Assembly (NCBI GenBank): GCA_965248055.1
Contig: CBDFIJ010000004.1
Coordinates: 988,299 to 1,052,298 of the forward strand
DNA: 64,000 nucleotides
Direction of reading: 5' to 3'
Origin: Candidatus Multivoradales bacterium
Lineage (GTDB): Bacteria > Acidobacteriota > Thermoanaerobaculia > Multivoradales > JAHEKO01
A model generated the notes under the pieces. The model was not told where the DNA came from. It searched no databases and worked only from the letters and a program-made list of their open reading frames with translations. Of this stretch, positions 11,502 through 63,450 are shown one piece after another. The number at the start of each line of letters is the position of its first letter. Positions within the stretch are counted from its first letter, which is position 1. Position numbers and translations under genes: made by a program.

Positions 11502-12565
11502 GGTGGCTCAGGGCGGTCCAGAGAGACCAGCCCAGAAGCGGTAACCCCGAGCAATCGCACGCCACGATCAGCAGCTTCGGAACGTTTGTAGAGCTGCCCG
11601 GTGGTCTCTGCGATCAGGTCGGCCGAAGCGGTCGGTGTCGACAGAGTCAGAGCGCGGGTGATGGTCTCAAAGTCTGGATAGCGCACCTTGATCGACAGGG
11701 TGCGCGCCGTCAGATCTCTTTTTTCCAAGCCCCTAGCGACTTTCTCAGCTAGGTTGGAAAGCTCCTCCAGCATGCCTTCGCGATCGTTCATGTCCTGACC
11801 GAAAGTCCGCTCACAGCTCAGACTTTTCCGCTTACGTTCTGTGGATACCAAACGATCATCTTCCCCGTTGGCGAATCGGTGTAAGACAGTACCGAACTTA
11901 CCGAATCGCTGCTCCAAGGCTGTGCGTTCGGTTTTCCTCAGCTGGCCGACGGTATGGAATCCGAGATCAATAATGCGGGCCTCAGTCGCCGGACCCACTC
12001 CGCGCAACGCCCGTACCGGCAGCGGATCCAAGAAGTTCTGCACTTGTTCGGGCTTCACCACAGTCAAGCCATCGGGCTTATCGTGATCGGAAGCGATCTT
12101 GGCAATCAATTTGTTTGGCCCCACGCCCACGCTGACGGTGAGGTCGAGTTGCTGCTGCACTCTGCGTCGAATTTCTTGCGCTACCGCGGTCGCCGAACCC
12201 CAAGGCTCCAGATGATCGCTGACATCCAAATAAGCTTCGTCGATCGACACCACCTGCACCAAAGGGGTGAACTCGCGAAAAATCGAAGTCACCTCCGCAG
12301 AGACCTTGCGATAACGAACAAAATCACTGCGCAAGAAGATCAACTGCGGGCACAATCGTAGTGCCCGAGCCGAAGGCATAGCAGAACGGACGCCAAAGGC
12401 TCGGGCCTCATAGCTTGCGGATGCAACTACTCCACGCCCCCCGGGGTCACCCCCGATGGCCACCGGTTTGCCGCGTAACGAAGGGTCATCGCGCTGATGA
12501 ACCGAAGCGTAGAAAGAATCCATATCGCAGTGCAGGATGCGACGTACTTGATCGCCTTTTTCCAT
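11450..12565 (-). CDS. dinB: DNA polymerase IV
   Basis: ILHCDMDSFYASV, SIDEAYLDV, and little-finger domain similarity. 3' end overlaps the nadE 3' end by 52 bp (convergent). Confidence 0.85.
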   Translation of the reverse strand: MEKGDQVRRILHCDMDSFYASVHQRDDPSLRGKPVAIGGDPGGRGVVASASYEARAFGVRSAMPSARALRLCPQLIFLRSDFVRYRKVSAEVTSIFREFTPLVQVVSIDEAYLDVSDHLEPWGSATAVAQEIRRRVQQQLDLTVSVGVGPNKLIAKIASDHDKPDGLTVVKPEQVQNFLDPLPVRALRGVGPATEARIIDLGFHTVGQLRKTERTALEQRFGKFGTVLHRFANGEDDRLVSTERKRKSLSCERTFGQDMNDREGMLEELSNLAEKVARGLEKRDLTARTLSIKVRYPDFETITRALTLSTPTASADLIAETTGQLYKRSEAADRGVRLLGVTASGLVSLDRPEPPQMSLLFEDSKSFEDSK

Positions 12566-31543: not shown

Positions 31544-31748
31544 TCTGGCATGCCCCCCTCAGCGGTCAAGGATATCTCTTGTCGGTCGTCATCGGAACCA
31601 GACCTCAGGAATGCAACCGCGATGGGGTCACAGGCAGGTGGATTGAGATAGATACCGGCCCTCCTCCCTAACCCCCGCCGGGATGACATAGAAGAGGCTT
31701 CTCCGCCGGGATGCCCCGAGGGGAGTCCCGACGATGGTCATACCGGTC

Positions 31749-31890
31749 TGAGGCACTTCAACGTGTCGTTCCACACTGAGACACTTCATCGTGTTGTCCC
31801 ATCCTGAGACACTTAATCGTGTCGTCCCACACTGAGGCACTTCAGCGCGTCATCCCACGCCGTGGAACATCAACGCGTCGTCTCCTTCAG
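31749..31890. repeat. 28-bp imperfect tandem repeat x5 (TGAGRCACTTNANCGTGTYGTCCCAYNC)
   Basis: Aligned by eye. Flanked by partial F1-type elements (..CCTAACCCCCGCCGGGATGAC..) at 31663-31691 and 31995-32025. Confidence 0.7.
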
Positions 31891-32077
31891 TACTTCCTCG
31901 TCATCCTCGTAGGGTGGGGGTTTTGGGGATCGAGGATCTCCAACAGCGTCAGCGACCCACAGCCAGTATCTGGACGGCCACCGAATCCCGTCCCCCCTCC
32001 CTAACCCCCGCCGGGATGACGATGGGTGGAATCTCCTCTGCCTCTTGTTCAGAGGCGGTCCTGCTGTTGTCTGGTGA

Positions 32078-42734: not shown

Positions 42735-43880
42735 CTGGAGATTCAGCCAACATCGAGATCCTTCGACTCGGGCTACGCCCTCGCTCAGGATGACAACGGA
42801 AGAGGTAGCTCCCCACGCCGCTATCCAGCATGCAACGAAATGCCTTCATCGGAGCGAGCTGTCCACGATCCCAATGAACTAACCCGGCCTGCTCTTCGTC
42901 GGGGAGGGGCAAGTTCAAACGGCCCTACACGCCGGGGTTATCCTGAGTGGCCGAAGCGTGCAGCTCTACCCCGTAGTCACCCTGAACGGACTATCCAAGG
43001 CCCCAAATGAACTAACCCGGCTGTTCTTCGTCGGAGAGGGGATTGCCCCCTCCCGCACCCTTTCACTGTGGTGGTCCAGAGCGACCGAAGCGTACAGCTC
43101 TACCCCGTAGTCACCCTGAACGGGCTATCCAAAGTCCCAAAATGAACTAACCCGGCGCTGTTCTTCGTCGGAGAGGGGATTGCCCCACCCGCACCATTCC
43201 ACCGCAGTGGTCCAGAGCGACCGAAGCGTATTGCTCTACCCCGTCGTCATTCTGAGCGAACCAGTCATCCGCTCAGCACCCATTCCACCCGTGGTCATCC
43301 TGAGCGACCCCGAGTCCGCGAGGGAGAGTCGAAGGATCTCAACTTCACAGCGCACACTCTTTCTGCAGAGGGCAGCATTGTCGCGACCCGAACTGAGGAA
43401 GGCAAAAAACGGGAACCCCCAAGGGGATCCCCTACATCGTCTTCCAACGTCAGGTGAATCGCCGAAACGGAGAACCATTCGCCAGCATCGAGATTCTTCG
43501 ACTCGGGCTACGCCCCTCGCTCAGGATGACAACGGAAGAGGTAGCTCGCCACCCCGGTACCCAGCATGCAACGAGTTGCCTTCATCGAAGCGAGCTGTCC
43601 ACGATCCAAATGAACTAACCCGGGCTGTTTCTTCATAAGAGAGGGCTTGTCCCCTCTCACACCCCTCCACCGCGGTCGTCCCGATCGACCGAAGCGTACA
43701 GCTCTACTCCGTTGTCATCCTGAGCGACCCCGAGTCCGCGAGGGTGAAGTCGAAGGATCTCAACTGCACCGCGTACACTTCTTCTGGAGAAGGCAGCATT
43801 GTCGCGCCACTAACTCAAGAGGACAGAACGGGAACCTACGAGGGCGCCCCTACATTTCTTTTTCTTGGTGGCTTCGTAGG
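42735..43880. repeat. complex repeat region: two ~370-bp duplicated modules carrying F2 elements (GAGATCCTTCGACTC..CGCTCAGGATGAC in both orientations), plus three tandem ~128-bp subunits each carrying a GAGGGG-N5-CCCCTC hairpin
   Basis: 42750-42890 matches 43487-43625, and 43290-43440 matches 43712-43855, at ~90% identity. Subunits at 42875/43003/43131. Reading frames through it (DDNGRGSSPRRYPACNE..) are repeat-derived. Confidence 0.7.
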
Positions 43881-52469: not shown

Positions 52470-53095
52470 GCCGGTCGATACAGATTCCCGCCCCTCGCTC
52501 CCCACCCGCTGGAATGACGGGCTGCTACTACCTTTTACCCCACCCGCGTCAGAATGGGAGGGGGCAACCCCCTCGATCCAACTCAGCGCCGAAGAACTGG
52601 CCTTGATCGAAGCCGCGACCTTCTCCATCGCCTAGCTATCAACGTATTCAAAACGACACACCCCCAACTCGTCATCCCGGCGGGGAAAGGATTGGGGGGC
52701 CGGGATCTACACATCTCAGCTGCGGAATCTGCACGCCCACCTTGGCAAAGATTCCCGCCCCACGCTCCCCTCCCGCGGGAATGACCGCCTGCTTTGCAGG
52801 GGCGGGTTTTACCCGCCCGCGTCAGAACGGGCGGGGACAAACCTCCCCCCTACTTCTCCATCGCCTAGCTATCTCCGCGCGCCCTTATGACCTACCCAAA
52901 CTCGTCATCCCGGCGGGGGAAGGATTGGGGGGCCGGGATCTACGCATCCCAGCTGCGGAATCTGCACGCCCACCTTGGCAAAGATTCCCCCCCACGCTCC
53001 CCGCCCGCGGGAATGACGGGCTGCTTTGTAGGGTCGGGCTTTACGCCCGCCCGCGTCGGAAGGGAGGGGATAAACCCCTCCCCTACACCTAGCTG
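52470..53095. repeat. tandem array D: ~240-bp module x~2.6, each carrying a divergent F1 palindromic element, a GGGAGGGG-N4-CCCCTCCC hairpin and a copy of the last ~60 bp of the AKR gene
   Basis: 52650-52890 vs 52890-53095 ~90% identical. Tail ..SAEELALIEAATFSIA* at 52577-52635 duplicates the AKR C-terminus (51585-51644). Confidence 0.7.
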
Positions 53096-53140: not shown

Positions 53141-55078
53141 ATGATGTATCGCCGTCTTCTATTTGCTGCCGTTGGATCGGCCTTAGCTTTCGTCGCCACA
53201 GCCCTCGCTGCGCCCACCGACAAACCGGTACTCCACGCCCAGCATTGGCTGGCGATCACCGGTAAGCCTTTGGGAGCCAGCGCCGGAGCACAGATATTCA
53301 CTCAAGGCGGCAACGCGGTGGACTCGGCTTGCGCGATGCTGGCTGCGACTTCCACCATGTGGGACACGTTGGGTTGGGGCGGGGAAACGCAGGCGTTGAT
53401 CTATCACCCAGGCGAGAAACGGGTGATCGGCATCAATGGACTAGGGGTCGCTCCCAGCGGCGCCACGGTCGAGTTTTTCCGCGAACAAGGATTACTCTAC
53501 CCACCTGAATTCGGTCCGCAAGCAGCGGTGACCCCAGGAACGCCGGGCGCGCTGATGACCATGCTGGCCGAGTACGGAACGATGTCGTTAGCCGAAGTGC
53601 TGGCCCCGGCGATGCAGATGGCTGAGGGCTATCCAGTTGAGGCGCAGCAGGCCAACAACATGGAGCGTCGGCGCGAGATTCTCGTCCAGTGGCCGAGTTC
53701 GAAAGAGGTTTTCCTACCCCACTGGGATACCTGCGCTGCGGCGAGCGAGGACGGAGTCCCTTCCGAAGACTGCCGTGTAGCCCCCTACCCAGGGGAGATC
53801 TTGCGCCAACCGGACCTGCACCGCACCTTAGCCAAACTGGTGGAGACCGAAGTCGAGGCTTTGGCTGCAGGCAAGTCGCGCAGCGAAGCAATCTACGCCG
53901 CCTATGACCGTTTCTATCGTGGAGACGTCGCGGAAGACTTGGTTGCCGCTACCCGCGAAGCGGGAGGACTGTTCACCGTCGAAGATCTGGACAACTGGCA
54001 GGTATATATCGAGGAGCCGGTGTCGGCGGACTACCGAGGCATTGAGGTCTACAAATTGACCCATTGGGTGCAAGGGCCGGTGATGCTGCAAGCTTTGAAC
54101 ATGCTCAAGAAACTCGACCTAGAGCCGATGGGCTACAACTCCGCGCTCTACATCCACTTGGTCAATCAGGTGATGAACCTGGCCTTCGCCGATCGAGATT
54201 TCTACTACGGCGACCCATATTTTCCGCCCGAGGAACCGATTGAAGGTCTGCTGTCGGATGACTATGCCGCTCACCGCTTGCTCCAGATCGACTGGAAGCA
54301 GAATGACGCGGACGCCAAGCCCGGTAATCCCTACCCGTTTCAGAACGGTGAGAATCCGTTCAGCGACCTCCTAGAGTCTTGGAGCAATATCCCGGCCACC
54401 GTGGACGCAGAAGGAAAGGAGAGCTGGCAGCAGACCTTGCTTCCTCCGAATGGAGCCACACCCCGCGGTTCGATGACCGCGGACGAGGCGTTCGTCGCCG
54501 GCACCACTTCGATCCAAGCCGCCGACGAGCAAGGATGGGTGGTCTCGATCACCCCGTCCGGCGGTTGGATTCCCGCGTTTATCGCCGGGGATACCGGCAT
54601 CGGCTTATCGCAGCGGATGCAGAGCTTTGTTTTGGACGAACGGCTCAATCCCTACAACTTGTTGGAACCGGGAAAGCGGCCCCGCGCCACCCTCACTCCT
54701 GGCATGGCACTCAAAGACGGCAAGCCGTATCTCTCGTTTGCCGTCCAAGGTGGTGACACCCAGGATCAGAATCTGCTGCAGTGGTTCTTGAACGTGGTTG
54801 AGTTTGGCATGAACGCCCAGCAAGCCGCCGAGGCTGCCAACTTCAACTCCTACCAAATGCAGTCCAGCTTCGGCGCCCACAACGCCGAGCCGGGACGTTT
54901 GGTGGTGCGCGAGGACCTGCCGGTGTGGGTCACCGACAAGCTGAACGAAATGGGCTATTCGGTGGAAAAGAGAGCCAAGACCTCGGGACCGATTACTGCC
55001 ATTGTCTTTGACCATGAAACCGGGACCATGTGGGGAGCGGCGAGTGACTTTGGGGAGGACTATGGGGTCGGGTGGTAA
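53141..55078 (+). CDS. ggt: gamma-glutamyltransferase family protein
   Basis: Signal peptide. GGT-like N-terminal region. Autoprocessing/nucleophile region ..AGTTSIQAADEQGWVVSITPSGG.. Confidence 0.75.
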   Translation: MMYRRLLFAAVGSALAFVATALAAPTDKPVLHAQHWLAITGKPLGASAGAQIFTQGGNAVDSACAMLAATSTMWDTLGWGGETQALIYHPGEKRVIGINGLGVAPSGATVEFFREQGLLYPPEFGPQAAVTPGTPGALMTMLAEYGTMSLAEVLAPAMQMAEGYPVEAQQANNMERRREILVQWPSSKEVFLPHWDTCAAASEDGVPSEDCRVAPYPGEILRQPDLHRTLAKLVETEVEALAAGKSRSEAIYAAYDRFYRGDVAEDLVAATREAGGLFTVEDLDNWQVYIEEPVSADYRGIEVYKLTHWVQGPVMLQALNMLKKLDLEPMGYNSALYIHLVNQVMNLAFADRDFYYGDPYFPPEEPIEGLLSDDYAAHRLLQIDWKQNDADAKPGNPYPFQNGENPFSDLLESWSNIPATVDAEGKESWQQTLLPPNGATPRGSMTADEAFVAGTTSIQAADEQGWVVSITPSGGWIPAFIAGDTGIGLSQRMQSFVLDERLNPYNLLEPGKRPRATLTPGMALKDGKPYLSFAVQGGDTQDQNLLQWFLNVVEFGMNAQQAAEAANFNSYQMQSSFGAHNAEPGRLVVREDLPVWVTDKLNEMGYSVEKRAKTSGPITAIVFDHETGTMWGAASDFGEDYGVGW

Positions 55079-55336
55079 GAATGACGAGCACGGGCCATCA
55101 TCAACGCCCCTTGGACGTCGGAGAATACGCGGACAGATCCCGGCTCCCCTCCCCCACCCCCGCCGGGATGACGGAGGCGGCGCTCCCCGAAATGACTCGG
55201 GTTGAGGCGCCCGCCGGAACGACATGAGCATGAGACGGGCTTGCCCTCGGTCGAGGGCGTCATTCCCGCGGGCGGGAGTGCCCGGACCGGAAAGCCGAGG
55301 GCGGGAATCTGGTGGACGATGAATATCCAATAGCTA

Positions 55337-56146
55337 ATGAAGAGACCACCCCAAAGAGATCCGGTGATCAGCGGCGAGACCTCCATCGACCGGCTTCGCG
55401 CCCTCATCGAACATCTGCGCGGACCCGACGGCTGTGCCTGGGACCGAGAACAGACTGTGCAATCGGTGCGCGCCAATCTGCTGGAGGAAGCGCACGAAGT
55501 CGCCGCAGCAATCGACGGCGGTGACAACGACGAACTGCGGGAAGAGCTGGGCGATCTGCTGTTCCAAGTCGCGTTCTTGGCGCGCATGGCTGAGGAAGAA
55601 GGGATCTTCGATTTCGACCAAGTCGCCAATGAAGTAGTCGACAAGATGATCGCCCGGCATCCGCACGTATTCGGCGATGAGGTCGCCGAGACCGCCGCCG
55701 AAGTGCGTAAGCAGTGGGAGCACCGCAAACAGGCAGATCGAGAAGATAAGAGCGGAACCAGATCGGCGCTGGATGGCGTTCCCACCACCCTGCCGGCACT
55801 CACCGGCGCCTATCGCCTGTCACAGAAAGCAGCAGCGCTGGGCTTTGATTGGCCGGACATCGAAGGCGTCCTCGACAAACTCACGGAAGAATGTCGCGAA
55901 CTGGCCGAAGCCGAGACTGCGGATGAAATCGCCGATGAATTTGGTGATGTGCTGTTCAGTTTGGTTAACCTAGCCCGACACCTGGGGCTGGAACCAGAGG
56001 GGGCCCTGGCGGCGGCCAACATTAAGTTCCGCACCCGCTTTGGGAAAATGGAAGAGATAGTCGCCAACGAAGGGGATCGAGTCTCGGATCTAACGTTAGA
56101 TCAGCTTGAGGACCTCTGGCAGAGGGCCAAACAGAGCCTCGATTAA
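55337..56146 (+). CDS. mazG: nucleoside triphosphate pyrophosphohydrolase MazG (tandem MazG domains)
   Basis: EEAHEVAAAIDGGD..EELGDLLFQV and a second copy EECRELAEAE..DEFGDVLFSLVNLARHL. Confidence 0.85.
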   Translation: MKRPPQRDPVISGETSIDRLRALIEHLRGPDGCAWDREQTVQSVRANLLEEAHEVAAAIDGGDNDELREELGDLLFQVAFLARMAEEEGIFDFDQVANEVVDKMIARHPHVFGDEVAETAAEVRKQWEHRKQADREDKSGTRSALDGVPTTLPALTGAYRLSQKAAALGFDWPDIEGVLDKLTEECRELAEAETADEIADEFGDVLFSLVNLARHLGLEPEGALAAANIKFRTRFGKMEEIVANEGDRVSDLTLDQLEDLWQRAKQSLD

Positions 56147-56264
56147 GACTCATGAACGGGAGGGGATGACCCCCTCCCCTGCCTTAAGAAAATAGTTTGT
56201 GGAGATAAACGGATCGCCTTTGCGTGTTTCTCGTAGGGAGAGGGCCGCGATCGCCTCCGACTCA

Positions 56265-57060
56265 CTCGTCATCCCCGAAGGGCGGGGGTTTGGCGGTCAG
56301 GGTCTTACAAGCGAAAAGACTACCGACGGATTACGTGACTGGCTGAGATCCCGGCCCCCCGCCCTCACACCCGCCGGGATGACGAGGGCTACCCGCGGCC
56401 GGATGACGAAGGAAGTGCCTGCCGGGATGACAAGGGAAATGTACGCCGAGATGACGGAAGCGGTACCCGCCGGACGACTCATCTGTGTCATCCCCGAAGG
56501 GAGGTGGCTCCGGGGGGCGGGAATCTTTCAAGCGCAGGGTCACCGACGGATTACCTGGTTGGCTGAGATCCCGGCCCCCCGCCCTCACACCCGCCGGGAT
56601 GACGAGGGCTACCCGCGGCCGGATGACGAAGGAAGTGCCTGCCGGGATGACAAGGGAAATGTACGCCGGGATGACGGAAGCGGTACCCGCCGGACGACTC
56701 ATCTGTGTCATCCCCGAAGGGAGGTGGCTCCGGGGGGCGGGAATCTTTCAAGCGAAGGGTCACCGATGGATTACCTGGTTGGCTGAGATCCCGGCCCCCC
56801 GCCCTCACACCCGCCGGGATGACGAGGGGTACCCGCGGCCGGATGACGAAGGAAGTGCCTGCCGGGATGACAAGGGAAATGTACGCCGAGATGACGGAAG
56901 CGGTACCCGCCGGACGACTCATCTGTGTCATCCCCGAAGGGAGGTGGCTCCGGGGGTCGGGGATCTTTCAAGCGAAGGGTCACCGACGGATTACCTGGCT
57001 GAGATCCCGGCCCACCGCCCGCACACCCGCCGGGGTGACGAAGGAAGTGCCTGCTGGAAT
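56265..57060. repeat. tandem array A: ~220-bp unit x~3.7 built on the F1 element (TCGTCATCCCCGAAGGG..GGTCGGGGATC..GATCCCGGCCCCCCGCCCTCACACCCGCCGGGATGACGA) followed by four ~24-bp sub-repeats with a GGATGAC core
   Basis: Unit boundaries 56485/56705/56925 read from the sequence. Units >95% identical. Open frames on both strands are not in register across units (220 is not a multiple of 3). Confidence 0.8.
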
Positions 57061-57106
57061 GACGGAAGAGGCGCAGGCGCCTGCTTTTCAAGCATCTACT
57101 TATCGA

Positions 57107-57535
57107 CTACGCGAAATGCGCCTGCAGTGCTCCCAGCAATGCCTGATAGATCGGCATGCAAAATTCGTGGGTGTCTGCGTCACTGGCGGTTTGGTAGTTA
57201 CTCTGCCACTCAACGAAGGTCCGCTCTCCGATCGTCACTGGCAAGACTCGGATACTGCCCACGTAGCGGACAATGTTCGCTGCCTCTAGGGGACCAGGGC
57301 CATCGTCGATGGTGTACTGCAGGGTTCGGTATTGGTCGTCGAGCCCGATCAAGGTCTCGTGGAACACGCCATTTAAAACCCGTTTGGCGCCAATTTGATC
57401 GGCGGCGGCTCCGCCGGTCGGCTCGTTACTCTCCAAGACTCCCGCTGCCCAATCGGTATTGTGAAAATTCCGTAGCGCAGCCCAGACATCGTCGACCGAA
57501 GCGTTGACTACACAACTGTTGTAACAGTGACCCAT
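57107..57535 (-). CDS. SRPBCC (START/Bet v1-like, polyketide-cyclase-type) domain protein
   Basis: 142 aa. ..VDDVWAALRNFHNTDW.. pattern of SRPBCC ligand-binding proteins. Sits between two repeat arrays. Confidence 0.55.
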   Translation of the reverse strand: MGHCYNSCVVNASVDDVWAALRNFHNTDWAAGVLESNEPTGGAAADQIGAKRVLNGVFHETLIGLDDQYRTLQYTIDDGPGPLEAANIVRYVGSIRVLPVTIGERTFVEWQSNYQTASDADTHEFCMPIYQALLGALQAHFA

Positions 57536-58019
57536 CTTCCCCCCTTCCGCGGTGTCGCGGAGATGTTGTGACCGGAGAGTACCCCGACTTTGATCATGCA
57601 GCCGCCGCTCGTCGGCGACCTAGTGAGGGCAATACGGGTTGCTGCGGTGACAAGATTTATGGAATGAGCATGCTGTGAAAAGGGATTAATCCCGCTCCGT
57701 CGTGGCTGCGGAGAAGCACCTGTGGAAAGAGGCTGTGCTTCTCGCCCAACTCGCGAGGTAGACGGCGCATCGAGATCCTTCGACTCCCCTCTAAGACTCG
57801 GGTCGCTGAGGATGACAATAATTAGCGACACCGAAACACCAACCTCTCAATTTTGCCGCCGACCGCGGGGTGGAATGTGTCCGCTTACCCCAGAGAAAGT
57901 GGTTCATCCTTGATCGCTGTAAAACAATTCCCGGTGATCGTGGGAGGGGATAAACCCCTCTCCACATAAGGATTGGTTCACGGTTGACAACGCCGACGAT
58001 CCTCTTGTCGTGGCGGGGC

Positions 58020-58095
58020 CTGGATTCTCGGACCTGACGTTAGATCAACTTGCGGACTCCTGGCAGAGGGCGAAACAGAGCCTCGATCTTGACTG
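58020..58095. repeat. duplicated fragment of the mazG 3' end (last ~70 bp of CDS) fused to the head of array B
   Basis: ..TLDQLADSWQRAKQSLDLDW* at 58030-58097 vs mazG ..TLDQLEDLWQRAKQSLD* at 56095-56146. ~85% nucleotide identity. Confidence 0.7.
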
Positions 58096-58114
58096 GTAAA
58101 CGGGAAGGGATAAC

Positions 58115-59215
58115 TCATCTGTGTCATCCCCGAAGGGCGGGGGTTTGGCGGTCGGGGATCTTATGAGCGAAGGGATCAGCGACCGATTACGTACTGGACT
58201 GAGATCCCGGCCCCCCGCCCTCACACCCGCCGGGATGACGAAAGCGGGCCAGCCGGGATTACGGAGACGGTACCAACGGGAATTACAAAGGTGTGCCCGC
58301 CGGAATGACTCATCTTCGTCATCCCCGAAGGGCGGGGGTTTGGCGGTCGGGGATCTTATGAGCGAAGGGATCAGCGACCGATTACGTACTGGACTGAGAT
58401 CCCGGCCCCCCGCCCTCACACCCGCCGGGATGACGAAGGCGGGCCAGCCGGGATTACGGAGACGGTACCAACGGGGATTACAAAGGTGTGCCCGCCGGAA
58501 TGACTCATCTTCGTCATCCCCGAAGGGCGGGGGTTTGGCGGTCGGGGATCTTATGAGCGAAGGGATCAGCGACCGATTACGTACTGGACTGAGATCCCGG
58601 CCCCCCGCCCTCACACCCGCCGGGATGACGAAGGCGGGCCAGCCGGGATTACGGAGACGGTACCAACGGGGATTACGAAGGTGTGCCCGCCGGAATGACT
58701 CATCTGTGTCATCCCCGTAGGGAGGGGGTTTCGGGGGGTCGGGGATCTTTCAAGCGAAAGGACTACCGACGGATTACGTGACTGACTGAGATCCCGGCCC
58801 CCCGCCCTCACACCCGCCGGGATGACGAAAGCGGGCCAGCCGGGATTACGGAGACGGTACCAACGGGAATTACAAAGGTGTGCCCGCCGGAATGACTCAT
58901 CTTCGTCATCCCCGTAGGGAGGGGGTTTCGGGGGGTCGGGGATCTTTCAAGCGAAAGGACTACCGACGGATTACGTGACTGACTGAGATCCCGGCCCCCC
59001 GCCCTCACACCCGCCGGGATGACGAAGGCGGGCCAGCCGGGATTACGGAGACCGTACCAACGGGGATTACGAAGGTGTGCCCGCCGGGATGACGAAAGCG
59101 GGCCAGCCGGGATTACGGAGACGGTACCAACGGGAATTACAAAGGTGTGCCCGCCGGGATGACGAAGGGTGCGCCGGGGCAAGCTCTCACACCGCCGGGG
59201 TGACAAGCGCCCACC
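58115..59215. repeat. tandem array B: ~198-bp unit x~5.5 built on the F1 element
   Basis: Units begin at about 58115, 58312, 58510, 58707, 58905 and 59077 (partial). Identity is near 98%. The 3' end runs into the start region of the helicase gene. Confidence 0.8.
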
Positions 59216-59235
59216 ACCTGGCAAACAATGGCGCG

Positions 59236-61707
59236 ATGCGTATCGATGCCCAAGCCAGTCGCATCGAAGTTTCGGTCGCGGATCTGATCGAGTCCGGTTC
59301 CAGGGGGAGTCTGGGGTTCGGTCAGCGCGGCGGCTATGAGCGGATGTGGATCGGCCAGGCGATCCACACTCGTTATCAAGAGCAACAGCATAACGACGAC
59401 CCGAGTTATCAAAGCGAGCTCGGGATCAAATCCACGGTTGTCATTCGGGGCTGGGAGGTCACGGTGCGCGGTCGCATCGACGGCCTGCGGCAAGAACCTA
59501 ATGGCACAGCCGTGGTGCAAGAGCTCAAGTCAGTGCGGCGAGACCGACCACCCTCCGAGGCAACCCTGAAGATGTATCGGGAACAGGCGGCAGTCTATGC
59601 CTGGATGCTGTCTCAGGAGCAGGCGCAAGAGCAGGCGGATTCTTCGGAAGAGGAATCCGACGACGCTCCAGAGACTTCAACAACTTCGGCCAAGGTCGAT
59701 GCCGAGCTGGTGCTGATCGAGGTCGCCTCCTATGAGGCTTTGATTGAGCCGCTGGAATTGAACCTTTCCGAGGTCGACACTTGGGTTCGCAAGCGGCTAC
59801 AGCGGATGGTGGGACAAGCGCAGCAAGCACAAGCAGAGAGAGACACTCGGGCCCGTGCCGGCCGCCACTTAGTTTTCCCCCATGACCAGACGCGACCTGG
59901 GCAGCAAGCAATCATCAAAGCCACCGAGCGGGCAATCGAGCAACAAGAGCATTTGTTGATCGAGGCGCCGACCGGGTTGGGTAAAACCGTAGCCGCGCTC
60001 TATCCAGCGGTCAAAGCGGCGTTAGAGGACGATTTAAAGGTTTATGTGCTGACCGCCAAGAATCTGCAGCAAGAAATGGCGCTCAAGGTGATGGAGATGC
60101 TCAACGTAGAGCAGAGCTTCTCCAGTCTGCAGGTACGGGCCAAAGCACGGATGTGCGCCAACGACGAAATCGTCTGTCACGAGGACTACTGCCGTTTTGC
60201 TCGCGATTACTTCGGCAAGCTGCACGCCAGCGGCTTAGTGGATCAATTGGCGGACGGATCGACAGTTCGGCCCGATACGGTGTTTGAGGCAGCCAGTCAG
60301 TTGGAAGTCTGCCCGTTTGAGGTCAGCCTGGAGTTGGCGCGTCGTTGCCATACTGTGATCGGCGACTACAACTATGCCTTTGATCCCTATGTCGCCCTGC
60401 GCGACTTCGGACCGGAAGGCAATCTCGAAAACTCGATTTTGATCATCGACGAGATCCACAATTTGGTGGAACGCGCCCGCGGTTATTGGAGCCCCGAGCT
60501 CTCCAGCAAGTCATTGCGCATAGCGGCGGGATTTGTCGCTGCGCAAGGGTCAACCGGGCCAGCCATAGCCCATCTCATCGGCCAACTTGCTTCGCGTATT
60601 GAGGAAGACGTCGACTTCGCCTTTGAGGACCACCCGCCACAGATCCAAGAAGTCCAAGGGGAGCTAGCCGCCGACGCCTTTGCCCTGCTGCGCCCCGATT
60701 TTGATGACGCTTTCTTGGATCACCTGGAGTCGATGCGGGCTTCTAAGGCAATGACCGCCGATGACCCGATCCGCGATCAGTACTACGGATTTCAGCGTTT
60801 CATGGACACCGCCCGGGAGGCCGATGACCAGACTTTTTCCACCGTGTTTCGCCGGGATGGTGAGGATCGACGCATCCAGATCTTCTGTTTGGACCCGAGC
60901 CGTTTTCTCAAACGCATCTTTGAGCGCAGCCGTGCGATCATCGGGCTCTCGGCCACCCTGTCCCCTCCTGAGTTCTATCGCGACCTACTTGGGCTGGATC
61001 AAGATCGCTGGACATTCGAGAAAGTCGAGAGTCCCTTTCCCGAGGAAAACCGAAGGGTGGTGATCGACGATGAGGTCTCAACCCTGTGGCGTGATCGCCC
61101 TGACAACTACGGATTGATCGCCGAACGCCTGGGAGATTTCGCCTCGGCAGTACCCGGCAATGTACTGGCACTGTTTCCGAGCTATCAGTTTCTGGCTGAA
61201 GTGGCGCCGCGGATGCACCTGGATGGCAAGCGCATCGCAGTCCAAGAACAGGCCAACAGCGCCAAAGATCGTGACCGGCTGCTGGACACCCTGCGAGATG
61301 GCACCGGGAACGTGCTGCTGCTGGCGGTCGCTGGAGGGGTGTTCGCCGAGGGCGTCGACTATCCGGGCGAGATGTTGAAAGCGGTGGCGGTGGTCGGTCC
61401 GGCACTACCGCCGGTATCGCTCGAGCGTGAACTGCTCAAACGCTATTACCAGGAGCAGTTTGAGCGCGGCTTTGAATACTCCTTCGTACTTCCCGGTATG
61501 ACCCGGGTGGTGCAGGCTGCGGGACGATTGATCCGTTCCGACACCGACACTGGGGTGATCGCGCTGTTTGGTCATCGCTTCAAACGCGCCCCGTATCTGG
61601 ATTACCTGCCGGAGGAGTGGTTTGTCGATGGGGACGTTGCAGCCAGCATCGGTACTCCATCGGTGGCCACAGCGAAATTTTTTGCTGGGCTTGAAGTCGA
61701 GGCGTAG
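59236..61707 (+). CDS. PD-(D/E)xK nuclease domain fused to an XPD/DinG/Rad3-family Fe-S helicase
   Basis: N-terminus with GRIDGL ... VVQELKS (motif II/III of RecB-like nucleases). Helicase Walker A EAPTGLGKT. Four-Cys Fe-S module MCANDEIVCHEDYC..C. DEIH box (IIDEIHN). Start set at ATG 59236, downstream of array-derived sequence. Confidence 0.75.
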   Translation: MRIDAQASRIEVSVADLIESGSRGSLGFGQRGGYERMWIGQAIHTRYQEQQHNDDPSYQSELGIKSTVVIRGWEVTVRGRIDGLRQEPNGTAVVQELKSVRRDRPPSEATLKMYREQAAVYAWMLSQEQAQEQADSSEEESDDAPETSTTSAKVDAELVLIEVASYEALIEPLELNLSEVDTWVRKRLQRMVGQAQQAQAERDTRARAGRHLVFPHDQTRPGQQAIIKATERAIEQQEHLLIEAPTGLGKTVAALYPAVKAALEDDLKVYVLTAKNLQQEMALKVMEMLNVEQSFSSLQVRAKARMCANDEIVCHEDYCRFARDYFGKLHASGLVDQLADGSTVRPDTVFEAASQLEVCPFEVSLELARRCHTVIGDYNYAFDPYVALRDFGPEGNLENSILIIDEIHNLVERARGYWSPELSSKSLRIAAGFVAAQGSTGPAIAHLIGQLASRIEEDVDFAFEDHPPQIQEVQGELAADAFALLRPDFDDAFLDHLESMRASKAMTADDPIRDQYYGFQRFMDTAREADDQTFSTVFRRDGEDRRIQIFCLDPSRFLKRIFERSRAIIGLSATLSPPEFYRDLLGLDQDRWTFEKVESPFPEENRRVVIDDEVSTLWRDRPDNYGLIAERLGDFASAVPGNVLALFPSYQFLAEVAPRMHLDGKRIAVQEQANSAKDRDRLLDTLRDGTGNVLLLAVAGGVFAEGVDYPGEMLKAVAVVGPALPPVSLERELLKRYYQEQFERGFEYSFVLPGMTRVVQAAGRLIRSDTDTGVIALFGHRFKRAPYLDYLPEEWFVDGDVAASIGTPSVATAKFFAGLEVEA

Positions 61708-61784
61708 AGACGGCGGGTCGGGTTCTTTTTGTCGCGCCCATCGAACCTTTTGTGCCCGGCGTTTAACAGCCGCGCGCACTGGCG

Positions 61785-62545
61785 CATTGAGATCCTTCGA
61801 CTCCCTTCACTGCGCTCCGGTCGCTCAGGATGACAGGGAAAAGCGGGAGGATGCCCCCCTACAGATGGATCGTTGCTTGTCTTTCACGACTGGTTAGGTG
61901 ACCAATTCGTCATCCCCGAAGGGAGGCCTTCTTGAGGGTCGAGAATCTTTCAAGTGAACGACTCAGCGACGGACTTGCGTACTTGAAGAAGATCCCGGCC
62001 CCCCACCCCCACACCCGCCGGGATGACGAGGGAGGGGGTCGGCGAGAGGACTCATCGATGTCATCCCCGAAGAGAGGGGGTTCTGCGGGTCGGGATCTTT
62101 TTGGCGAACGGATCTCCGACGGATCACGCACTTGGCGGAGATCCCGGCCCCCCGCCCCCCCGGCTCCACATCCCCGTCGCGCCGGGGCAGGCTCTCAGTC
62201 CGCCGGGATGACGAGGGAGGTGCTTTGGGATGGCGAAGGGAGGGCCGGCGAAATGACTCTTCGGTGTCATCCCCGAAGAGAGGGGGTTCTGCGGGTCGGG
62301 ATCTTTTTGGCGAACGGATCTCCGACGGATCACGCACTTGGCGGAGATCCCGGCCCCCCGCCCCCCCGGCTCCACATCCCCGTCGCGCCGGGGCAGGCTC
62401 TCAGTCCGCCGGGATGACGAGGGAGGTGCTTTGGGATGGCGAAGGGAGGGCCGGCGAAATGACTCTTCGGTGTCATCCCCGAAGGGAGGGGGTTTCGGGG
62501 GTCGGGGATCTTTCAAGCGAAGGACTCAGCGACTTACCGCCTCCC
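61785..62545. repeat. F2 element followed by tandem array C (~206-bp units x~3) built on the F1 element
   Basis: F2 at 61785-61845 (CATTGAGATCCTTCGACTC..CGCTCAGGATGAC). F1 units from 61905. Units 62060-62265 and 62265-62470 are nearly identical. Confidence 0.75.
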
Positions 62546-62553
62546 GTCTTCGA

Positions 62554-63450
62554 TCAACCCGGCGCGACGACGCGCAGGCCTTTGGGCACCACGCTGATCT
62601 CAACCGGATCTTGGCCGACCTCAAGCATCGACTCACCGTCGCCATAGATCGGCAGGGTATGGCTCAGAGAAAGCTTCACTTTGCTGCTGCGGACCATTTC
62701 CACCGCTGGATGGTCGACGTGCTTGCCGTCGTAAACCTTGAGCAGCAGTGGTATCAGTTTGGGTTTGAAGGTTCGTTTGATCCACACCAAGTCCAGCAAG
62801 CCATCGTCGACTTTGGCCTGGGGCGCGATCTTCATCCCGGCGCCGAAGCGCCAGCAGTTGGCGGTGATAAAAGACATGCCTTCGCCGTGCCAGACCCCGG
62901 CGTCGTGTTCGATGGTGTAAACCGGGGGCTTGAATCCGGCCAGGACCGCGACCGCTGCCAGCGGATACCCCAAGGCACCGCGAAACACTCGCTGGCGGTT
63001 GGCCAGACGAGCCGAGAGACTGTCGATGCCAACCCCACAGTGGACTGCAAAATATACTTGTCGGTCGTGCTTGTCGTCGACCCGTCCAAGGTCTACTCGT
63101 CGAGTTCGACTCTCGACCGCCAGACCCAACGCGATGTCCAAGTTTTCTGGAATTCCTACCGAAGTGGCGAAGTCATTGCCTCGACCCAACGGAATCGGCG
63201 CCAAAGCAGTTTCTGAGCCGGCCAGCTCCTGCACCGCGTAGTGAACCGACCCATCTCCTCCCACCACCACCACACGCTCTTGACCTCGATCGCGAGCGAC
63301 AGCAACCGTCGCACGTAGATCGGCGGCACTGTTGGTGAGATGAAACTCCGCTCCTACCCGACGAGCACACTCTCTCAGGCTGGATAGACGCGCCGCCACC
63401 TTCCCCCGACCGGAGGTTGGATTGACGACGAATTGAATTTTGGACTGCAC
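62554..63450 (-). CDS. diacylglycerol kinase catalytic-domain lipid kinase (YegS/DagK family)
   Basis: VVNPTSGRG and GGDGSVHYAV (DAGK_cat signature). 298 aa. Confidence 0.8.
   Translation of the reverse strand: MQSKIQFVVNPTSGRGKVAARLSSLRECARRVGAEFHLTNSAADLRATVAVARDRGQERVVVVGGDGSVHYAVQELAGSETALAPIPLGRGNDFATSVGIPENLDIALGLAVESRTRRVDLGRVDDKHDRQVYFAVHCGVGIDSLSARLANRQRVFRGALGYPLAAVAVLAGFKPPVYTIEHDAGVWHGEGMSFITANCWRFGAGMKIAPQAKVDDGLLDLVWIKRTFKPKLIPLLLKVYDGKHVDHPAVEMVRSSKVKLSLSHTLPIYGDGESMLEVGQDPVEISVVPKGLRVVAPG

Follow-up and report, generated by a model that had tools for sequence, protein, structure and literature searches.

An EndoDinG-type nuclease-helicase is encoded at 59236..61707 (+ strand) in a 64,000-nucleotide stretch from a Candidatus Multivoradales bacterium (Acidobacteriota, contig CBDFIJ010000004.1), which is called the window below. 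The protein has 823 amino acids (aa) plus the stop codon, and its top match in both sequence and structure is Finegoldia magna DinG (FmaDinG, PDB 9KQH). It joins an N-terminal RecB/Cas4-family PD-(D/E)xK nuclease to an XPD/DinG-type helicase with an iron-sulphur (Fe-S) domain. We put the probability at about 0.86 that the gene is a stand-alone EndoDinG which, by homology, translocates along DNA and cuts it, that its role is chromosomal, and that the arrays of a palindromic repeat (F1) on its two sides are not part of its system. A fitting name for the gene product is EndoDinG-type nuclease-helicase, in place of "helicase C-terminal domain-containing protein" or "ERCC-2"; beyond annotation, the importance is small.

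The + strand open reading frame (ORF) terminates at 61707 and gives 823 aa from the ATG at 59236. In the orthologue alignment, the starts coincide with 59236 (MRID...) or lie 2 residues earlier (MAPRFD...), and a 100% identical protein of 823 aa (P0001, on a 3.35-Mb contig) is already held by NCBI/ENA. The start is therefore not downstream of 59236, and the N-terminal domain is intact. The first-pass annotation thus had the ORF coordinates right, and its own objection, that a start further downstream would remove the nuclease domain, fails on the orthologue starts. A longer version of 876 aa from the GTG at 59077 was rejected; its first 53 codons are translated from the repeat array upstream (array B) and have no counterpart in the orthologues. 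Promoter and terminator scans gave nothing above shuffle expectation, with a single weak -35/-10-like site at 59200-59229.

The protein belongs to the EndoDinG family

EndoDinG was defined in a 2025 review as a subgroup of the DinG-like proteins (Cheng 2025, PMC11981726), and FmaDinG, whose structure was solved in 2026, is the first characterised EndoDinG (PMC13650095). The fusion of nuclease and helicase is therefore a published and structurally solved architecture, neither unusual nor new, and the window protein is an uncharacterised further member of that family. In the phmmer search, 9kqh_A was the best PDB sequence match with an E value of 6.3e-96, and the aligned stretches covered aa 9-128 in the nuclease and aa 207-795 in the helicase. 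Consistently, when the AlphaFold2 model of the whole protein (predicted local distance difference test, pLDDT, 78.6; predicted template-modelling score, pTM, 0.74) was compared by Foldseek, 9kqh_A was again the best match (E 2.1e-54, template-modelling (TM) scores 0.71/0.79, 796 columns). It was followed by Thermoplasma XPD at TM 0.55, and DinG was also matched.

FmaDinG is a Mn2+-preferring endonuclease on single-stranded DNA and a 5'-3' helicase, which unwinds bubbles, flaps and forks and digests into duplex DNA via ATP hydrolysis, whereas its ATPase-dead mutant cannot (PMC13650095). Its H40A mutant has lost nearly all nuclease activity, the crystals were grown from the nuclease-dead mutant D75A, and D378A is ATPase-dead (PMC13650095). 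The FmaDinG nuclease residues H40, E54, R73, D75, E88 and K90 correspond to H44, E61, R80, D82, E96 and K98 of the window protein, and the ATPase residue D378 corresponds to D405. Along the DNA path, K249, K278/K280, F478, R578, F698 and R733, all of which impair FmaDinG activity when mutated, are represented by K275, K303/R305, Y517, R621, F746 and R781. D475, F478 and K482, which are DNA contacts of the Arch domain described as specific to EndoDinGs (PMC13650095), align with D514, Y517 and R521. The sequence and structural features of an EndoDinG were found, namely the PD-(D/E)xK fold, the H/E/D/E/K set, the XPD-like core, the Fe-S CCCC motif and homology over the full length. The domain order is also that of FmaDinG, with the PD-(D/E)xK nuclease followed by motor domain 1 (MD1), into which the 4-Cys Fe-S and Arch domains are set, and motor domain 2 (MD2), and the likeness extends to Walker A and B, the P-motif proline and the ratchet Phe.

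At least 887 homologues of the 823-aa protein (887+) were found in the databases, and the nearest named relatives, at ~50% identity, come from metagenome-assembled genomes (MAGs) of Thermoanaerobaculia and other Acidobacteriota. A genome scan with the protein alone returned zero confirmed relatives; the GTDB representative set seems not to contain the source species. In the second scan, for which an alignment was the query, 592 of 600 pattern matches were confirmed as relatives. They include Acidobacteriota, Bdellovibrionales, Caldithrix, Clostridia and Tissierellales, and these lineages overlap those given for EndoDinG in the literature. Within Acidobacteriota, the cited EndoDinG text names the order Acanthopleuribacterales only. 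EndoDinGs thus seem common among Acidobacteriota, with hundreds of orthologues at ~50% identity that come chiefly from Thermoanaerobaculia MAGs.

The N-terminal domain is a RecB/Cas4-type nuclease

The N-terminal ~205 aa form a RecB/Cas4-family PD-(D/E)xK nuclease whose catalytic residues are all in place (aa 1-205, 59236..59850; this and the features below are on the + strand). A profile built from aa 1-205 of 12 orthologues matched the N-terminal domain of 9KQH at 3.6e-7 and Sulfolobus Cas4 SSO0001 (4IC1) at 2.3e-5, with weak matches to the nuclease domains of AdnAB. Pfam PDDEXK_1 was matched by 7/12 orthologues, the best E value being 3.9e-8, and many database homologues carry a precomputed PF12705 annotation. 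When the N-terminal domain was modelled alone by AlphaFold2, the pLDDT was 88.8 and the pTM 0.85. Foldseek of this model against the PDB ranked FmaDinG first (8.9e-10), and the other top matches were Cas4 SSO0001, human EXO5, AdnA/AdnB, AddA, ACE1, MGME1, RecB, RecE and Cas4-Cas1, so that the top ranks are occupied by RecB/Cas4-family nucleases only.

The key residues were located by alignment with 9KQH and checked in an alignment of 20 orthologues with 51-74% identity, to which all statements of invariance below refer. The metal ligands are H44 (59365..59367) and E61 (59416..59418). The GRIDG motif (aa 79-83, 59470..59484) contains R80, the counterpart of the substrate-binding R73, and D82, the counterpart of the catalytic Asp D75. 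QELKS (aa 95-99, 59518..59532), which lies within VVQELKS, supplies E96 and K98, the (D/E)xK of the nuclease. Further downstream there is a Q117-x3-Y121 motif (59584..59598), which we take to be the QhxxY motif typical of RecB-family nucleases, and this segment aligns to Cas4 SSO0001. H44, E61, R80, D82, E96, K98, Q117 and Y121 are unchanged throughout the orthologues. An acidic low-complexity insertion at aa 126-152 (59611..59691) varies in length between orthologues, as seen from alignment gaps, and the pLDDT is low at ~aa 140-150. The first-pass annotation, which had recognised a RecB-like nuclease from GRIDG and QELKS, is borne out here by the profiles, the orthologue PDDEXK_1 matches, the model and Foldseek.

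The helicase part and the proposed mechanism

The remainder of the protein was described in the first-pass annotation as an XPD/DinG-type Fe-S helicase with four cysteines, and this description holds. The superfamily 2 (SF2) helicase core, comprising MD1, the Fe-S domain, the Arch domain and MD2, spans 59851..61620 (+ strand, as are its parts) and is supported by Pfam, by the TIGR00604 rad3 and DinG/YoaA models of NCBIfam and by Foldseek. Pfam covers aa 218-795 with DEAD/ResIII, DEAD_2, HBB and Helicase_C_2. Walker A is APTGLGKT (aa 244-251, 59965..59988), located from the orthologue alignment with a position check, and the Walker B/DEAH-type motif is DEIH (aa 405-408, 60448..60459), whose D405 was placed by the 9KQH alignment. 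Between them lies the 4-Cys Fe-S domain, C307-x6-C314-x4-C319-x39-C359 (60154..60312). Its four cysteines are invariant and align with the cluster cysteines of FmaDinG, including C289 and C294. The pLDDT of the whole-protein model is low at aa 304-318, as expected because the model was built without the Fe-S cluster. The Arch domain (~aa 420-552, 60493..60891) was delimited from the secondary structure of the model and the 9KQH alignment. MD2 (Helicase_C_2, 61135..61620) carries P725, F746 and R781, which correspond to P677, F698 and R733 of FmaDinG according to Pfam, the 9KQH alignment and the orthologues.

By homology with FmaDinG, the motor domains would load on a 5' single-stranded tail and move in the 5'-3' direction with ATP, while the Fe-S and Arch domains would split the duplex. 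The DNA would then be threaded into the N-terminal nuclease and cut endonucleolytically, with H44, E61, D82 and E96 forming the putative metal site, K98 placed at the scissile phosphate, and possibly the preference for Mn2+ found in FmaDinG. Threading combined with cutting would let the enzyme resect into duplex DNA. A coordinated translocate-and-cut mechanism, as in FmaDinG, is thus likely. Judged from the genomic context, the cellular role is likely to be chromosomal DNA repair or the processing of replication intermediates rather than immunity. The stand-alone, housekeeping-type context lends weak support to repair or replication over immunity, a question left open by the 2026 structural paper.

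Comparison with other helicases and nucleases

XPD (Rad3, archaeal/eukaryotic) and E. coli DinG/YoaA share the SF2 5'-3' core, the 4Fe-4S domain and the Arch domain with the window protein, but they have no nuclease domain. The score against TIGR00604, the model for XPD/Rad3 proper, was 171.4 bits versus a cutoff of 246.95, and the DinG and YoaA equivalog models gave 89-123 bits versus cutoffs of 598-789. The protein is therefore related to XPD without being an XPD orthologue.

The nuclease domains of Cas4, AddA/AddB, AdnAB, RecB, EXO5 and MGME1 have the same PD-(D/E)xK fold and motif set. Those of Cas4, AddB and EXO5 contain an Fe-S cluster. In contrast, there are zero cysteines in aa 1-205 of the window protein, so its N-terminal domain has no Fe-S cluster of its own. 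The motor differs as well, since the nuclease is fused to an SF2 XPD motor and not to a superfamily 1 motor. Assignment to Cas4 is not supported, as the protein scores 22.8 bits against TIGR00372 cas4 versus a cutoff of 65 (E 6.8e-5), has no N-terminal Cys, and has no cas genes nearby, including cas1 and cas2.

Two other nuclease-linked DinG types were compared. ExoDinG, represented by Staphylococcus aureus DinG (PDB 8ZEF/9II8), combines a DinG-type motor with a DnaQ-like 3'-5' exonuclease according to the literature, whereas the nuclease here is PD-(D/E)xK. Consistently, the DnaQ-DinG models match the helicase part alone and far under their cutoffs. CasDinG of type IV CRISPR systems likewise has a DinG-type motor working in a nuclease-dependent pathway. 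Its Fe-S module is degenerate with the cysteines missing, and its gene stands beside csf genes (literature), whereas the window protein keeps the Fe-S cysteines and has no csf neighbours.

F1 repeats on both sides of the gene

Each F1 unit forms a ~117-nt imperfect palindrome, GTCATCCCCGAAGGG...GGGGATCT...AGATCCCGGCCCCCC...CCGCCGGGATGAC, and the element ends GTCATCCCCG...CCGGGATGAC are conserved. After the palindrome comes a linker in which its right end is repeated in degenerate form, each copy being 23-24 nt long. The element is often amplified into tandem arrays with composite units of 195-233 bp. The unit folds as a long imperfect hairpin, whose energy is modestly better than that of shuffled sequences (z -2.25). 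In the window, F1 occurs at 31675-32022, 52662-53086 (- strand), 55120-55181, 56268-57074, 58113-59206 and 61907-62533, and from 52 to 63 kb it is present in five intergenic gaps in a row. The repeat motifs gave 14 and 25 matches in the window, versus 0.3-0.4 expected by chance.

Upstream of the gene lies array B (58113..59206, +), which has 5 units of 195-197 bp and then 70-bp and 23-bp right-end sub-repeats. Tandem Repeats Finder bounds it at 58113-59168, and degenerate right-end copies reach 59206, 30 bp short of the ATG. Downstream, a solo F1 is followed by array C (206-bp units, 2.4 copies, tandem part 62020-62513) and a truncated element (61907..62533 in total, +). The first of these elements starts ~200 bp past the stop codon (about 61907-61909). 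The first-pass annotation had both ends of the gene abutting arrays; the flanking arrays are real, whereas the contact is approximate, with gaps of 30 bp and ~200 bp.

F1 is lineage-restricted. No match to the element was obtained in two Joint Genome Institute (JGI) metagenome scans with the exact pattern, and none of the loci encoding relatives, whether 80 genome loci or all 83 are counted, contains the F1 core. No Rfam family was matched anywhere in the window. A tandem array with a period of at least 40 bp was present at 4/83 orthologue loci, and 0/83 were flanked on both sides, which is the outcome of the check for repeat-flanked orthologues that the first-pass annotation had suggested. 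L001, the locus of the closest full-length relative with flanking DNA, is alone among relatives in having two solo F1-like hairpins just upstream of the gene; such repeats were not seen at the orthologue loci L002 and L003. Matches of GTCATCCCCG within the helicase genes of other loci were dismissed as coding sequence: they lie ~2.2 kb inside the gene, and CGGGGATGAC at that place could specify the PGMT motif, which is conserved.

Genes around the nuclease-helicase

The window order begins with an aldo-keto reductase (AKR), an unknown ORF and a minus-strand pair of F1 elements, followed by a gamma-glutamyltranspeptidase, one F1, MazG and array A. It continues with an SRPBCC gene (-), a copy of a second repeat (F2), a relic of the mazG 3' end, array B, EndoDinG, another F2, array C, a YegS-type lipid kinase (-) and rpsD (-). 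Among relatives with 56-74% protein identity, the order AKR-unknown-MazG-EndoDinG is kept in L003, and EndoDinG-kinase-rpsD is kept in L001 and L002. The intergenic gaps of L001, L002 and L003 are short or absent. Across the 83 orthologue loci no conserved partner gene was found, and the biggest neighbour cluster occurred in 9 loci.

The last ~75 bp of mazG together with ~25 bp downstream (56072-56170) are duplicated at 58016-58114 with 81% identity, directly before array B. Segmental duplication therefore accounts for some of the local pattern. Comparison with L003 suggests that an ancestral mazG-endoDinG adjacency was split by a duplication/insertion of ~1.9 kb carrying array A and the SRPBCC gene.

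Alternative explanations

Several observations weigh against an active, stand-alone EndoDinG. Identity to FmaDinG is only ~28%, and the biochemistry is confined to this enzyme, which lies outside the acidobacterial clade. The window protein itself reaches no Pfam nuclease model and stays below the TIGR00372 threshold, so that its nuclease was assigned from profiles, the predicted structure and the conserved residues. Besides the variable acidic insertion, it differs from FmaDinG in the substrate-binding R10, the sole functional position not conserved here; the acidobacterial clade invariably has Ala (A15) in its place. The predicted "gate" segment (aa 20-38) was modelled with low confidence and bears a clade-specific, invariant RGGYER that is not in FmaDinG, so gating or substrate choice could differ. 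Finally, three F1 arrays within 6.3 kb around the gene are a density beyond chance alone. The missing Pfam match, the Ala and the poor gate model would fit a degenerate PD-(D/E)xK fold without catalytic function, confined to DNA binding or regulation and comparable to the pseudo-exonuclease pExoDinG. However, the five catalytic residues and R80 are present and invariant in orthologues down to 51% identity, and cleavage by FmaDinG needs every one of those residues (PMC13650095). R10 is also missing from Dna2 and AddA (PMC13650095). A non-catalytic domain is therefore highly improbable.

The genomic setting bears on two other proposals, both raised in the first-pass annotation. An anti-phage or CRISPR-associated effector, either CasDinG-like or a Cas3/Cas4-like nuclease-helicase, would agree with the frequent occurrence of nuclease-helicase fusions in defence systems, with weak Cas4 and Cas3 matches, and with a match to the PADLOC model PDLC01439, "typeIV_DinG (CAS-IV-A; associated)", at 3.3e-100 over aa 214-795. 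This match spans the generic XPD core alone, however, and the curated Csf4 model TIGR03117 gives 27 bits versus a cutoff of 400. The four invariant cysteines argue against CasDinG, there is no CRISPR-like array within the window, and the neighbours are housekeeping genes (MazG, SRPBCC protein, lipid kinase, S4) with no cas genes or defence neighbours found. Its position is syntenic in relatives, and no neighbour is conserved across the 83 loci. We consider a defence role very unlikely. The other proposal ties the nuclease-helicase functionally to F1, by unwinding or cutting extruded hairpins or cruciforms or by controlling array expansion. The closeness of the arrays (one ending 30 bp before the gene, one beginning 200 bp after it, and a third 2 kb upstream), the long imperfect hairpin of the unit, the two hairpins at L001 and the unwinding of bubbles, flaps and forks by FmaDinG (PMC13650095) all speak for such a link. 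But F1 also occupies unrelated intergenic gaps at 31.7, 52.7 and 55.1 kb, is missing as a core from the loci of relatives, and has no counterpart at the L002 and L003 orthologues; no locus is array-flanked on both sides, phyla that lack F1 also have the family, shuffling worsens the hairpin energy only modestly, and the mazG 3' duplicate next to array B shows that segmental duplication made part of the pattern. An action of the protein on F1 DNA is thus scarcely credible. Equally hard to credit is a related form, in which EndoDinG was recruited in this acidobacterial lineage to manage the F1 arrays, for example by resolving hairpins or cruciforms during replication. If it were true, the clustering of the arrays and the hairpins at L001 would be a real association, and a changed substrate preference would underlie RGGYER and the missing R10 equivalent. 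The evidence favours the other alternative of the first-pass annotation, that the repeats accumulated around the gene. The F1 arrays are a lineage-specific palindromic intergenic repeat expanded in the gaps of a conserved housekeeping block, and the repeat sandwich around the stand-alone EndoDinG is real but incidental.

Additional observations

PDLC01439 scores 3.3e-100 here on a non-CRISPR protein, and the model appears to capture generic XPD/DinG helicases. Caution is needed, as EndoDinG-type proteins can be miscalled as type IV CRISPR-associated through this PADLOC "type IV DinG" model. A CRISPR interpretation of the F1 arrays themselves was also rejected, because their composite units are all identical, variable spacers are lacking, and a CRISPR-like periodicity was not found.

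Both strands of the arrays contain ORFs of 100-340 aa, at 56199-57507, 58045-59224 and 61910-62647, in whose translations strings such as FVIPAG and PAGMT recur periodically. These ORFs are repeat artefacts and not genes. A similar translation was seen at L001 (10001-10110), where the annotated 843-aa orthologue P0004 has an N-terminal extension of ~37 aa (...FITTFVIPAGG...) that is a translated F1-like hairpin; its true start is probably ~37 codons downstream. At L003 (10001-12479) the orthologue is split into two gene calls (596 aa and 234 aa) that overlap at 11775-11791, which represents either a frameshift (pseudogene) or an assembly error.

The gamma-glutamyltranspeptidase (53141-55078) and the SRPBCC (Polyketide_cyc2) gene (57107-57535, - strand) are both bordered by F1 repeats. 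L003 has AKR-unknown-MazG-EndoDinG as a contiguous block, whereas in the window these two genes lie within it.

F2 is a second family of short repeats, of the form GGCGCATYGAGATCCTTCGACTCCC...GGTCGCTSAGGATGAC. Two same-strand copies, at 57764-57818 and 61781-61836, bracket the mazG relic, array B and endoDinG. Further copies at 42755-42794, 43246-43340 (-), 43490-43530 and 43714-43761 (-) adjoin a 136-bp tandem repeat at 42951-43249.

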